The translations under genes were made by a program, and so were the position numbers. DNA of 64,000 nucleotides from a virus (taxonomy: Duplodnaviria > Caudoviricetes): positions 3,025-67,024 of IMG/VR virus record IMGVR_UViG_3300037840_000382; one strand, 5' to 3'. Position 1 is the first letter of the stretch. Every line of letters begins with the position of its first letter. The notes under the pieces were generated by a model, which searched no databases, was not told where the DNA came from, and was given only the letters and a program-made list of their open reading frames with translations. Of the stretch, positions 41,017 through 44,696 are shown piece by piece.

Positions 41017-41202
41017 ATGCCCATCGGTCTATTATTCTGGATTTTGATGATTCTGTGGATTTGCTCGTGGGTAGCAACTCGGTGGGGACCCTATACCACC
41101 TATGTGTACGCCAGCGAGTTTTTGTTCTTCGTGCTGCTGTTTCTTTTAGGGTGGCACGACTTCGGCTTCATCTTGCAAGGCGGCGGAGTCGGAGGTCGAT
41201 AA
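41017..41202 (+). CDS. two-TM small membrane protein
   Basis: MPIGLLFWILMILW...LLFLLGW. Confidence 0.7.
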   Translation: MPIGLLFWILMILWICSWVATRWGPYTTYVYASEFLFFVLLFLLGWHDFGFILQGGGVGGR

Positions 41203-41203
41203 A

Positions 41204-41359
41204 ATGGGCCTCGTTCTCCTAGTCATCCTCCTCGTCCTGATCTTTGGCGGAGGTTCCCTCTACACAGGGGGCTTCGGCTACGGGACCGTAGGGCACGGTG
41301 GCATGCTCGGGCTCGTGCTTATAATCGTCCTGGTGCTGGTGTTGCTCGGTAGGTTCTGA
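41204..41359 (+). CDS. DUF3309-like small membrane protein
   Basis: MGLVLLVILLVLIFGG..GYG..GGMLGLVLIIVLVLVLLGRF; GGAGG RBS. Confidence 0.7.
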   Translation: MGLVLLVILLVLIFGGGSLYTGGFGYGTVGHGGMLGLVLIIVLVLVLLGRF

Positions 41360-41466
41360 TCCTTAAGGCTTGATCCAAAAGTATCTTTGCTAGATGGTAG
41401 CTAAATGGTACCGTCAAAGAGCAAGGACGTGCGACTTGCGTAGATCAAGCGCAAGGATCTTACATT

Positions 41467-42216
41467 ATGGCCAAGACAGCTAGAATAAGTAGCCGACGCG
41501 TCCACAACAGTGAAAACAATACTGAGCTTGAGGAGAGGGTCGGTCACGGCATTGACCTTCGCGGCGGCAAGGTCATTGATCCGACTAAAAATGTCCTCGA
41601 TCTCGTTAGGGCTGAGAGCAAGTATCAAGATGCTATGCGGGATGCCTTAGAGAAGCTCCTCGATGTGAAGGTAACCGGCGTCAGCGACAGGCTCGAAATT
41701 ACCGCCAGCGCGATGGTTTCCTATCAGAACGCCCAGCGCGACGCTGAGACCAAGCGCATCGACCAGCTCGCCCAGACCCGTCAGGAGTTCCAGAACACCA
41801 TCCGCGACATGCTGGCGGAGTCGGTGCGCACAACATCGAACTTGGTCAGCACGCAGCTCGTTCAGATTCAGGCGACCTTCGACACGCGTGTCACTAAGTT
41901 GGAGGCCGGAGCGTTCACCCAGGCTGGCAAGAGTTCCGTTCAAGATCCCCAGACGGCCGACGCGCTGTCTCGGATGGCCGCGGGAATAGCTTCGCTTTCA
42001 ACCACGACTACCGATGCCATGAACAAGACATCTGCTATGACTGCCGAAGCCATCGCAAAGTTAACCGTTACCTTGGCAAACATGCGAGAGTCAGACAGCA
42101 GCATATCTGGACGACATATCGGTCAAGGCCAAGTCTTTGCCTGGATTGCTACGGCAATTGCCATGGCCGCTGGCGTCGGCACCATCATTGCAGTGTTGTT
42201 GATGAAGGCGGGATAG
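41467..42216 (+). CDS. coiled-coil protein with C-terminal TM
   Basis: Helical body and terminal hydrophobic helix. Confidence 0.7.
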   Translation: MAKTARISSRRVHNSENNTELEERVGHGIDLRGGKVIDPTKNVLDLVRAESKYQDAMRDALEKLLDVKVTGVSDRLEITASAMVSYQNAQRDAETKRIDQLAQTRQEFQNTIRDMLAESVRTTSNLVSTQLVQIQATFDTRVTKLEAGAFTQAGKSSVQDPQTADALSRMAAGIASLSTTTTDAMNKTSAMTAEAIAKLTVTLANMRESDSSISGRHIGQGQVFAWIATAIAMAAGVGTIIAVLLMKAG

Positions 42217-42264
42217 AGCGGCCAGCCCCCGGCCAAGATCAACCGAGGGCTCTCCGATCGATGA

Positions 42265-42705
42265 TCAGCTATTTCGCTTGCAGAAAAGATCGCCGATCAG
42301 AAGATGCCAGCAAGTGTCTGGAGTTGTCTTGTCGGTCGCGACTATCGGATTTCTCGTCTTTTGTACCGGCTTGTGAACTTGAGCGATCAGCACTGGATGA
42401 GGTCGAACGATTGCCGCTTCTCTGATCGTAGGACGAGAGAGCGCGACGGCAACAGGACGAGATGGCGCAGTAACAACTCTGTGGACTCTTGAGCTAGGAT
42501 CGGGCGCAAAATAGTACGGCCACCCTCGATAGTTCATTGGGCCGTTCATGTGGTAGAGGTCCAATATCCTGGTGGAACCGGTCGGTGGTATGTCCCAAGC
42601 CGCGAGCTCACCAGGCGCCTCCGCAAAACCTGGTAAATTCCTGAATCCAACCACACCGGCCACAGTGGCAGCCAATGCCATATAAACGAAAAAGACTGGT
42701 CTCAT
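42265..42705 (-). CDS. hypothetical protein with N-terminal TM
   Basis: GAGGTG RBS; ATGA overlap. Confidence 0.5.
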   Translation of the reverse strand: MRPVFFVYMALAATVAGVVGFRNLPGFAEAPGELAAWDIPPTGSTRILDLYHMNGPMNYRGWPYYFAPDPSSRVHRVVTAPSRPVAVALSRPTIREAAIVRPHPVLIAQVHKPVQKTRNPIVATDKTTPDTCWHLLIGDLFCKRNS

Positions 42706-43121
42706 TTTTTCACCTCTTGTTGGATATTAACGCACCACTTCCACAAAAAAGAAGCTAATAGGGACGGATCGTCAGTCGCCTTGTAGTCCTGGACCTTGAC
42801 GAGTCCCTCGGCGAACTCGACCAGTTCGCCGTATGTCAGCCGTGACATTCGTTCGGCGATGTCGTCGAGGGGCACCTTGTCCTCCCAGGTCTTTGCCGCC
42901 CTGACGTTGCTGGCCGCCACGTTGCCGATTGCTTCTTGCAAACTGCACAAATTGACCGCGTCAGCGCTGCGCTGTCTAGCGTTTCGGCGTCCGCCAAAGT
43001 CATCTGGCCCGAGCTGCGGCTCGATCCTTGGCTCGTCGAGGTCCACGGCGTAATCCGGTTTGCCGAGGTCGGTCGCGGCGTTACGGCGCAGGAACTCGGG
43101 CGCTCCATTTGCTCTGGTCAT
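42702..43121 (-). CDS. hypothetical protein
   Basis: GGAGG RBS. Confidence 0.65.
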   Translation of the reverse strand: MTRANGAPEFLRRNAATDLGKPDYAVDLDEPRIEPQLGPDDFGGRRNARQRSADAVNLCSLQEAIGNVAASNVRAAKTWEDKVPLDDIAERMSRLTYGELVEFAEGLVKVQDYKATDDPSLLASFLWKWCVNIQQEVKK

Positions 43122-43400
43122 TTATCTTCCTCCAATGACGGATGTGACACGGTCGTACCAAATCAGATCGAAAGGTCGTGGGCGAGGAATCGGGATAGCG
43201 AGCACGGGCGGATTCGAACCGCCAACCTCTGCCGATTGAGCTACGTGCTCAGCTTGCGCGAATGCGTCGGCGGGAATCGCGCGATGATGCGAAATCGTGT
43301 GGTGAACGTGGTGCCGGTGCTGCGCCGCCGCCGCCGCCGCCGCCGCCGCGCACGTCGAAAGCGCGAGGACTATGAGAGCCGACAGCGTTCGCGCAATCAT
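43122..43400 (-). CDS. small signal-peptide ORF with poly-Ala; contains a tRNA-like element
   Basis: MIARTLSALIVLALSTC(A)9QHRHH; ATGA overlap upstream. Confidence 0.5.
   Translation of the reverse strand: MIARTLSALIVLALSTCAAAAAAAAAQHRHHVHHTISHHRAIPADAFAQAEHVAQSAEVGGSNPPVLAIPIPRPRPFDLIWYDRVTSVIGGR
43199..43250 (-). ncRNA. tRNA-like element lacking the anticodon arm
   Basis: GAGCACG-TA-GCTC-AATCGGCA-GAG-GTT-GGCGG-TTCGAAT-CCGCC-CGTGCTC-G: perfect 7-bp acceptor stem, D arm and canonical T arm. Confidence 0.8.
43324..43347. repeat. (GCC)8 trinucleotide repeat
   Basis: Read directly; encodes poly-Ala on the minus strand. Confidence 0.9.
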
Positions 43401-43549
43401 AAAAGCATCTTCCGGCGATATCCCCAGCGACTGCCCCATGTCTTCCAGCGAATCATACCTCCGATCCAAAGGACACAACCAGCTTCTGGCCACCACCAGT
43501 CTAAAGCAATGACGCCCAAGCGCTTGGTCCGAATTCGAACGAGCCTCAT
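43397..43549 (-). CDS. small Trp/Arg-rich protein
   Basis: AAGGT RBS; coupled to the next ORF. Confidence 0.45.
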   Translation of the reverse strand: MRLVRIRTKRLGVIALDWWWPEAGCVLWIGGMIRWKTWGSRWGYRRKMLL

Positions 43550-43565: not shown

Positions 43566-44696
43566 CTAGCGGCCGAAGATGGACTCGATGTTTGCTTGCA
43601 GCTCGGCGTTCGGGGGTGGCGCCTCCTGCATGCCGAACGCCGGACCGGAGTTGGCAGCTGGGCGGAACGGCGCCAGCACCGGACCGGGGCCCGGCGCGGG
43701 AGGCGCCGCTGCCGGGGTCGCGGCGGGTTGCTGTTGCGCATTGGCTTCTTGCATCTCCTGCTTCGTTCGGCGCCGGCGGCGCGCGGGCGGGTCAGAGGGG
43801 GATGCAATAGGCGCAACAGCCGGTCCGGGCATTGTAGGGGTGGCCTGCGGGGTAGGGGCGCCCCAATGCTGCGCGGGGGGCGCGGCGGAGGGGATCGCCG
43901 CCGGCGGCGCCGCAGTGGCCGCAGGGAAAGGATGCACAGGAAGCGGCGCGTATTGATCCCCCATTTGAATGCCAACAGGAGGCGCAATCGCAGCCTGCCG
44001 CGGCCGGTCGAGGCGGCCCACGATGATGTCGGATGCCTTGGTCTTGATGGCCTGGTCGCGTACCGCGAGGGTCGCGGCATCGAGCCATGCCTGCGGCGAC
44101 GGGGCAAATGCGAGGGTGCCACGCTCGCCGCCGCCCTCGAACGACAACCTGGTCACGACGTCGCTCATGTCGAAACCGGCGTTGAGGAACTTGGCGACAT
44201 AGGCCCGCCAGTTTTTCAGAGAGTTGGGCGGGATGGTCAGCCGGAACATGCTGTTGGGCATGCCGGGAATGACGATCGCGGTCTTTTGTTCGTCGCGGCA
44301 CGCCTTCACCTTCGATCCCATCTCGCTGATCTTGCTGCCCCACACATTTTGAGGACACGACGCGCAAGTTGGCGACTGCGGCGAGCCTGCCGCGATCGAG
44401 GGCGCAATCCCATTGTCCGAGAAGCAAGCCGGCGGCGTCGGATTTTTTGGGTCGTACTTGGTCTCGTAGTACATCTTTGACATGTGGTCGTTCACGTCTA
44501 CGATCACGACATCGATGTAAAGCGTCTGAATGGGCTGCTCGTTGCCCGCAATGTCCACGAGGGTGAACCGGTCGCCCAAGATAGACAGGTAGGGCCCGGC
44601 GCCTGCGCCGACGTTCCCGATTGCTTTGTAAGCGAGCGAGGGGGCACTGCCCTGCTTGTTGCGGATGTAGTCCGGCAGTTGATTGTGATCGACCAT
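43566..44696 (-). CDS. putative ssDNA-binding / annealing protein
   Basis: PACFSDNG..CASCPQNVWGS..KAC Zn site; Pro/Ala tail; located in the replication module. Confidence 0.65.
   Translation of the reverse strand: MVDHNQLPDYIRNKQGSAPSLAYKAIGNVGAGAGPYLSILGDRFTLVDIAGNEQPIQTLYIDVVIVDVNDHMSKMYYETKYDPKNPTPPACFSDNGIAPSIAAGSPQSPTCASCPQNVWGSKISEMGSKVKACRDEQKTAIVIPGMPNSMFRLTIPPNSLKNWRAYVAKFLNAGFDMSDVVTRLSFEGGGERGTLAFAPSPQAWLDAATLAVRDQAIKTKASDIIVGRLDRPRQAAIAPPVGIQMGDQYAPLPVHPFPAATAAPPAAIPSAAPPAQHWGAPTPQATPTMPGPAVAPIASPSDPPARRRRRTKQEMQEANAQQQPAATPAAAPPAPGPGPVLAPFRPAANSGPAFGMQEAPPPNAELQANIESIFGR

Follow-up and report, generated by a model that had tools for sequence, protein, structure and literature searches.

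A tRNA-derived sequence lacking its anticodon arm is read in frame within a small phage gene and was probably captured as a coding linker

We report that a 52-nt sequence derived from a tRNA, from which the anticodon arm is missing, lies in frame within a gene for a 92-residue phage protein. The window, that is the whole 64,000-nt stretch of DNA that was analysed, corresponds to bases 3025-67024 of a 67,024-bp IMG/VR virus record. In the reading that we favor, to which we assign a probability of about 0.65, this gene took up, in frame, a tRNA sequence most similar to tRNA-Lys, which evolves there as a coding spacer and is being shortened by in-frame deletions. The element and its surroundings are as follows.

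43199-43250, minus strand: tRNA-derived element without an anticodon arm, based on sequence, RF00005, the fold in isolation and independent contigs.
43122-43400, minus strand: gene for a small His-rich protein of 92 aa with a predicted N-terminal signal peptide; contains the element.
43323-43400, minus strand: signal-peptide region, MIARTLSALIVLALSTC then an Ala run, from DNA and protein alignments.
43251-43280, minus strand: conserved motif AIPADAFAQA, left border of the hypervariable linker (alignments A4, A1 and A3).
43170-43198, minus strand: codons 3' of the element, namely the last two bases of the Ala codon starting at 43199, then IPIPRPRPF (A1 and A3).
43397-43549, minus strand: upstream ORF of 50 aa; its stop and the start of the 92-aa gene overlap (ATGA).
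42702-43121, minus strand: downstream 139-aa gene, apparently translationally coupled, with no family match.
43566-44696, minus strand: upstream 376-aa gene, phrog_27714 (also phrog_23155), of unknown function, which served as the query for finding related phages.

Read from 43250 to 43199, the element consists of an acceptor stem, a D arm, a T arm and a discriminator G. All seven acceptor pairs are perfect, and positions 8-9 are TA. The D arm starts with the stem strand GCTC, followed by an 8-nt loop with GG and by GAG, which passes directly into GTT and the T arm, with the anticodon arm missing. Only three D-stem pairs remain (CUC/GAG), the partner of G10 having been removed by the deletion. 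The T arm has a GC-rich 5-bp stem and the loop TTCGAAT, and G18-G19 are present. Base -1 is U, and CTA stands 3' of the discriminator in place of CCA. In frame, the element translates as EHVAQSAEVGGSNPPVL(A).

The Rfam tRNA model RF00005 aligns with 43199-43250 on the minus strand from end to end (model positions 1-71) at 32.1 bits, the gathering score being 29 bits, and the anticodon arm is the only large deletion in this alignment. The E value is 9.5e-5 for the 701 nt searched and 0.0087 for the whole window against all 4227 Rfam families; no other match above threshold occurs in the 64-kb window. ARAGORN called no tRNA and no tmRNA over the window, and its silence on the element is expected because the anticodon arm is missing. 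Since the model positions of this arm are deleted and ARAGORN makes no call, the element is not a decoding tRNA, but it is truly tRNA-derived. The sequence-only reading had described the same 52-nt structure, read in frame within an ORF as we find it, and had proposed the RF00005 comparison as a check; the description holds on each of these points. In isolation, the predicted structure of the 61-nt stretch contains the acceptor helix, the residual D helix and the T helix, at -24.3 kcal/mol (z = -2.12); among 200 shuffled sequences, 8 were equally stable. In a 251-nt context, the predicted minimum-energy fold pairs the 5' strand of the acceptor elsewhere and is no stabler than shuffles (z = +1.93), which is weak evidence.

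The short form of the element is genuine. Logan contigs from three other sequencing runs (X2, X3 and X4), which represent three studies besides the probable source, cover it. Those of X2 and X3 show no difference from the window over 42900/42953-43309, and the X4 contig (7,299 nt) has a single substitution within the element, C>T at 43227 (plus strand). The same substitution is found in an IMG/VR contig, L004, whose element scores 31.8 bits against RF00005. In the ORF it changes GAG to GAA, which is synonymous, and it disrupts a pair of the residual D stem. The two DNA copies thus differ at 1 of 52 positions, which equals the background rate (33 of 1959; 98.26% identity over 1959 nt). Contigs demonstrate the presence of an allele, not its absence; within this scope, none of the runs has inserted or missing letters inside the element, and the contigs of the four runs show no 21-nt insertion. 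An assembly artefact that shortened a full tRNA gene is hardly credible, as the 52-nt form recurs in X2, X3, X4 and L004 with no inserted letters.

The ORF that carries the element starts with an ATG at 43400 that is common to all alleles and overlaps the TGA of the 50-aa upstream ORF. Likewise, its TAA stop, preceded by GGAGGA, overlaps the ATG of the next gene. Five DNA alleles (the window, L002, L003, L004 and L048) are all open, at 279, 258, 240, 264 and 240 nt, respectively; L048 is one contig added by a metagenome scan with a flank pattern. The alleles differ by a 15-nt GCG-repeat change, by several indels in the His-rich stretch and by a replaced linker. On codon usage the frame of the ORF scores best of the six, marginally (0.071, against -0.004 for the next frame). 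Neither a Pfam nor a PHROG family matched the 92-aa protein. Homologues were found in 14 clusters among 5.8 billion proteins, with E values of 1.8e-44 to 8.5e-10 against the profile, and these clusters together with 2 further cluster members, the window and L048 make up 18 distinct sequences. Identity across the 18 reaches down to 42%.

The members of this family have a common layout. The hydrophobic N-terminus closes with STC and an Ala run; a His-rich stretch, the motif IP[AV]DAFAQA, the variable linker and, at the C-terminus, IP[LI]PR[PQA]RPF..W.DRVT.VIGGR come after it (alignment A4; P0016, P0017). The hydrophobic N-terminus is conserved although its DNA varies. The homologues come from a protein database and are therefore ORFs by construction, so that frame conservation is tested without bias by the five DNA alleles only. 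Because these alleles remain open despite their indels, the start and stop overlap the neighbouring genes, the N-terminus is conserved and the family has 18 members, we conclude from the alignments that the 92-aa ORF is a real gene.

Bacterial lipoproteins follow the lipobox rule [LVI][ASTVI][GAS]C. The N-terminus of the 92-aa protein reads L-S-T-C and departs from this rule, with T at -1; P0006 has Y for C, and P0017 is without Cys at this place. The T at -1 and the Y-for-C variant favour an ordinary signal peptide over a lipoprotein, and predicted cleavage by signal peptidase I after the Ala run appears more likely. The run following the signal-peptide Cys comprises nine GCG (Ala) codons at 43323-43349 (minus strand) and is 15 nt longer than in L002, L003, L004 and L048, so this is a triplet-repeat length polymorphism within the gene.

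The 50-aa upstream ORF is rich in Trp and Arg; it is present in the window, L002 and L048 and cleanly absent from L003 and L004, where the homologue of the 92-aa gene has its own ribosome-binding site, AGGAGA. In the 376-aa protein, the N-terminal 200 residues are conserved and common to phages of Pseudomonas, Acinetobacter, Rhizobium and Xanthomonas, and the C-terminal half is long, of low complexity and rich in Pro and Ala.

Within the 92-aa gene, the tRNA-derived letters run from directly after AFAQA to shortly before IP[LI]P. Between AFAQA and IP[LI]PR[PQA]RPF, the linker is hypervariable, ranging from 2 to 31 aa, with sequences unrelated among homologues. Seven of the 18 sequences have a tRNA-derived linker. 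In the window and in P0002 (the same as L004) it reads EHVAQSAEVGGSNPPVLA; in P0003, GHVAQSAERRALVPEVGGSNPPVLA; in P0006, GHVAQSAERRALIPEVGGSSPPVSA followed by KTDIEV; and in P0005, P0014 and P0015, GHVARLAEHGGPPVLA. Six others, L002, L003 and L048 among them, have a linker of the type KPGAVPIL[IV]KPEVES. The remaining five are short or unrelated: WLEA, GLEA, PE, SPPQAPK and one Pro/Ala-rich linker of 22 residues. Every change in linker length is a multiple of 3.

The tRNA-derived linkers form a series of alleles at the protein level. P0003 and P0006 hold seven extra residues, RRAL[V/I]PE (21 nt), precisely between two Glu (GAG) codons, and these 21 nt restore the 73-nt length of a tRNA. Thus the proposal of the sequence-only reading that the anticodon arm was lost by a deletion between two GAG triplets is borne out by the place of the extra residues. 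Back-translation of these residues gives C25, G26, a satisfiable 5-bp stem, C32, an anticodon C-U-N and a purine at 37, and codon positions 1 and 2 fix only one pair of the anticodon stem, 29-41 (G-C). Read in this way, the seven residues would fit an anticodon arm. As the cause of the deletion, prompted by a match to tRNA-Val, we considered a direct repeat of 7 nt (GGCAGAG) shared by the D arm and the anticodon-stem/variable region. This idea was rejected because the Pro codon of the longer alleles fixes C40 and C41, so that only GAG triplets flank the deletion. Further along the series, P0005, P0014 and P0015 are without two T-loop codons and carry R in place of Q where the codon contains the invariant A14. 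In this lineage, to judge by its protein sequences, the tRNA shape is destroyed and the reading frame is kept.

Differences among the alleles were also placed on the tRNA structure, by back-translation for those other than the window. In the window, acceptor pair 2-71 is A-U; P0003 and P0005 would have G.U at this pair, and P0006 would probably have G-C, together with a G.U at pair 3-70. The residues that differ between P0003 and P0006 map to positions 37, 59 and 70/71, which are tolerant in tRNAs. Such states of pair 2-71 and changes at tolerant positions could also arise if the patch was copied again from related tRNAs. P0003 and P0006 are encoded on metagenome contigs of 2,095 bp and 12,581 bp, respectively. 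A degenerate pattern for the DNA of the longer alleles had no match in IMG/VR, and a related-locus search with P0006 returned only three contigs that were already known.

We compared the element with tRNA genes in search of its parent. Aligned with tRNA-Lys genes, it shows one 21-column gap over the anticodon arm, and a tRNA-Lys(UUU) in L006 has exactly the same acceptor stem. A generic tRNA pattern had matches in 49 of 151 Pseudomonadota genomes. All seven matches whose acceptor starts with G-A-G have the anticodon TTT, and ARAGORN confirmed six of these as tRNA-Lys(UUU). Furthermore, the acceptor GGGCACG, which the G-H-V alleles imply, occurs in a tRNA-Lys(CUU). The discriminator G, the anticodon stem and the T stem mismatch the tRNA-Lys examples seen. 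For an exact parent, a gapped pattern found only one unrelated, AT-rich tRNA-Lys in 185,579 species genomes and nothing in IMG/VR, where the short form itself lay outside what the pattern could match. When the element was compared by BLAST with 401 Pseudomonadota genomes, tRNAs for Val, Arg, Thr and Lys were the ones that came up, each matching only in part. From these alignments, the closest natural class appears to be proteobacterial tRNA-Lys, and given the inferred C-U-N anticodon our best guess for the parent is tRNA-Lys(CUU).

Closely related phages show that the linker can be exchanged. Where the window has the 54-nt tRNA-derived stretch, L002, L003 and L048, which are 91-98% identical to it around the locus, have 45 nt of unrelated sequence, and the 9-nt difference keeps the frame. 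The element is thus dispensable in near-identical phages. The nine codons 3' of the element have also diverged (IPIPRPRPF against IPLPRQRPF), and 100% identity resumes downstream of them; the presence or absence of the 50-aa upstream ORF is independent of the element. Therefore the element-bearing patch moves between phages by recombination, and it derives from a more diverged lineage. Elsewhere, identity to L002 is 98.98% over 41377-42259 and 91-96% in the adjacent blocks, and for several blocks a counterpart is missing altogether, which makes the region strongly mosaic across this group of phages.

The phage itself has its structural genes on the plus strand up to about 41 kb, with major head, tail and tail-lysozyme families. 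The replication module comes next; its minus-strand genes encode an SNF2-type helicase, a DNA polymerase and an exonuclease, and a primase-helicase is encoded on the plus strand. Three close relatives were found in IMG/VR, one of them with direct terminal repeats, and the four phage records contain no further tRNA, no tyrosine integrase (PF00589; the control was positive in 14 of 14 genomes) and no reverse transcriptase. No GenBank phage matched in a megablast search with 6 kb of sequence. At the protein level, distant relatives are phages of Pseudomonas, Acinetobacter, Rhizobium and Xanthomonas (26-38% identity); in phage Rollin, the syntenic place is taken by an unrelated gene of 104 aa. The runs in which this stretch is well represented are all soil metagenomes. 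The RNA runs contained only 0.05-0.10 of the sampled words and thus say nothing about expression. A cluster of small predicted membrane proteins lies at the junction of the structural and replication genes (41017-41359 and 41467-42216, plus strand; 42265-42705, minus strand). Two of its proteins (61 aa and 51 aa) are very hydrophobic, and two others have a hydrophobic segment, at the C-terminus in the one of 249 aa and at the N-terminus in the one of 146 aa. Together with the element-bearing gene, this cluster may be a lysis or membrane-protein cassette.

In the reading that we favor, a tRNA sequence, as a gene or as cDNA, would have been inserted into a tolerant, probably disordered linker, where by chance it left the frame open. 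With no reverse transcriptase and no tyrosine integrase in the phage, the candidate mechanisms are host enzymes or illegitimate recombination. The ancestor would have had the full 73-nt tRNA length, the lineage of the window would have lost exactly the 21-nt anticodon arm between GAG triplets, another lineage would have lost the T loop too, and others would have replaced the linker. Since capture, the reading frame would have been the sole constraint. The present role would be that of some 18 residues of spacer between two conserved motifs of a small, predicted secreted protein, and if tRNA-processing enzymes recognised the mRNA at all, this would be a by-product that is not under selection. 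We infer the direction of these events, the tRNA-Lys parent and the lack of an RNA function; the derivation from a tRNA, the coding context, the series of protein alleles and the dispensability in near-identical phages are established by the data. Several points stand against a purely coding reading, namely the intact acceptor and T arms of the window, the pairable states at 2-71 and the marginal codon score.

The pairable states at 2-71 and the changes at tolerant positions are also what one would expect if the element were kept for a role at the RNA level, as a tRNA-like module of acceptor, T arm and elbow within the mRNA whose coding reading is secondary. RNase P, RNase Z, CCA-adding or modification enzymes, or a defence that targets tRNA-Lys would then be the recogniser, and the module would either mark a site between cistrons for processing or act as a decoy. 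The 7-bp acceptor stem, T arm, G18-G19 and TTCGAAT are indeed intact with a score above the Rfam threshold, base -1 is U, the three inferred states of pair 2-71 are all pairable, and P0003 and P0006 differ at tolerant positions. In addition, the parent class, tRNA-Lys, is a known target of anticodon nucleases such as PrrC. A tRNA-like RNA of M. smegmatis, YrlA, with a 7-bp acceptor stem, is described in PMC4201824 as cleaved by RNase P and given CCA. Against such a role, near-identical phages do without the element, P0005, P0014 and P0015 lost the T loop and probably A14 yet kept the frame, the sole DNA substitution is synonymous and breaks a pair, and all deletions are in frame; the loss of the acceptor helix in the 251-nt fold points weakly the same way. 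On balance we consider a primary RNA-level role unlikely. We regard as quite unlikely the mixed case, in which the tRNA-Lys-derived module is still under selection as RNA while it is translated, acting both as a coding linker and as an mRNA-embedded tRNA mimic. Such a dual-use element could uncouple the cistrons by giving RNase P or RNase Z a point of entry, or it could draw off defences that bind or cut tRNA-Lys as a decoy. By their back-translated residues, P0003 and P0006 may even contain, within the protein gene and in frame with it, a complete gene like that of tRNA-Lys(CUU).

If instead the ORF were untranslated, the element would be a decaying tRNA pseudogene in a spacer and the open frame a by-product of high G+C. 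The weak codon score, the lack of a Pfam or PHROG family and the G+C content of 58.6%, with many long spurious ORFs nearby, would suit this explanation. We find it improbable, as five DNA alleles with independent indels and a replaced segment are open from the same start to the same stop, the hydrophobic N-terminus, AFAQA and the C-terminal motif are conserved in 18 sequences down to 42% identity, and both start and stop overlap neighbouring genes. Still more improbable is an attP-type scar, left by site-specific integration or excision at the tRNA gene of a host, or by a satellite that targets tRNA genes. tRNA genes commonly serve as integration targets, and the element does lie in a mosaic, indel-rich region. 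However, the four records are all without a match to PF00589, direct terminal repeats are present in one relative, and the phage encodes its own DNA polymerase, primase-helicase and helicase, as is typical of a virulent phage. Moreover, attP sites carry the 3' part of a tRNA, whereas here both halves are present with the middle missing. The sequence-only reading had offered four functions, namely an mRNA-processing signal, a tRNA mimic or decoy, an att remnant and raw material for a new gene. The third does not agree with the missing integrase, the terminal repeats and the presence of both halves, and the fourth fits best, in the form of a linker inside a real, frame-conserved gene.

If captured coding sequence is the right explanation, this locus is a clean natural example of foreign non-coding DNA taken in frame into a phage gene, in which the alleles show the shortening from full length to the arm-less form and then to the form without the T loop. 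It would illustrate how disordered linkers of fast-evolving surface or secreted phage proteins accept arbitrary sequence. For annotation, the case is a caution that an above-threshold Rfam tRNA match can be coding sequence and that peptides of the 'GGSNPP' type can be tRNA-derived. It answers no long-standing question and is a curiosity that bears on the uptake of foreign DNA by phage genes. If, on the other hand, tRNA enzymes or defence nucleases still recognise the RNA, the element would have a dual use of a new kind. Keyword searches of the open-access literature found no report of a tRNA sequence serving as a coding linker in a phage.

The element is closest to tRNA-Lys genes (for example in L006 and L066, of a Rhodospirillaceae MAG); in the tRNA-Lys(UUU) of L006, D stem and T loop are identical to its own, like the acceptor stem. 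The acceptor of the tRNA-Lys(CUU) in L066 matches the GGN-CAC-G start of the longer alleles, and their C-U-N is compatible with CUU. In contrast to these genes, the element has no anticodon arm, has a discriminator G rather than A and CTA for CCA, and is read as protein; its T stem and the inferred anticodon stem differ too. With minimal substrates of RNase P and the CCA enzyme it has in common a 12-bp stack of acceptor and T arm, an intact T loop and the D/T elbow residues. This likeness is one of shape only; the element is embedded in a coding region without free ends, is absent from sister phages and matches no other Rfam family and no tmRNA.

YrlA-type Y RNAs have tRNA-like D and T arms and an acceptor-like stem, and the YrlA of M. 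smegmatis, with its 7-bp stem, is cut by RNase P and receives CCA (PMC4201824). YrlA has a permuted order (T arm, closed acceptor-like stem-loop, D arm) and lies next to a Ro60 gene. Unlike YrlA, the element is in normal tRNA order with an open acceptor stem, and the Rfam search gave no YrlA match. The bacterial tRNA mimics of a 2026 preprint are free-standing ncRNAs unrelated to the element. Run X6 covers the locus in fragments only, and one of its contigs, 'record 11' (256 nt, depth 3.1), has 43 of 44 aligned letters in common with the element (43205-43244) in a permuted order: variable region and T arm, 13 letters, then D arm, with flanks unlike those of the window. The 13 letters and their neighbours can close an acceptor-like 6-bp stem with a UUCG-type loop. 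This order is that of a YrlA-type Y RNA as described in PMC4201824, or of two abutting tRNA-like units. Judged by its order and flanks, the contig is probably a tRNA-like RNA of another soil organism and not the locus of the 92-aa gene.

Phage attP tRNA fragments are 3' portions that match the host target; they lie beside an integrase and sometimes overlap ORFs. Like them, the element is tRNA-gene sequence in a phage genome; unlike them, it has both halves and no tyrosine integrase. In eukaryotes, exonised SINEs are tRNA-derived sequences that became protein-coding through retroposition and splicing. The phage case involves a single locus with no reverse transcriptase and no repeat family, but for the outcome, a tRNA-derived sequence read as protein, exonised SINEs are the nearest analogy.
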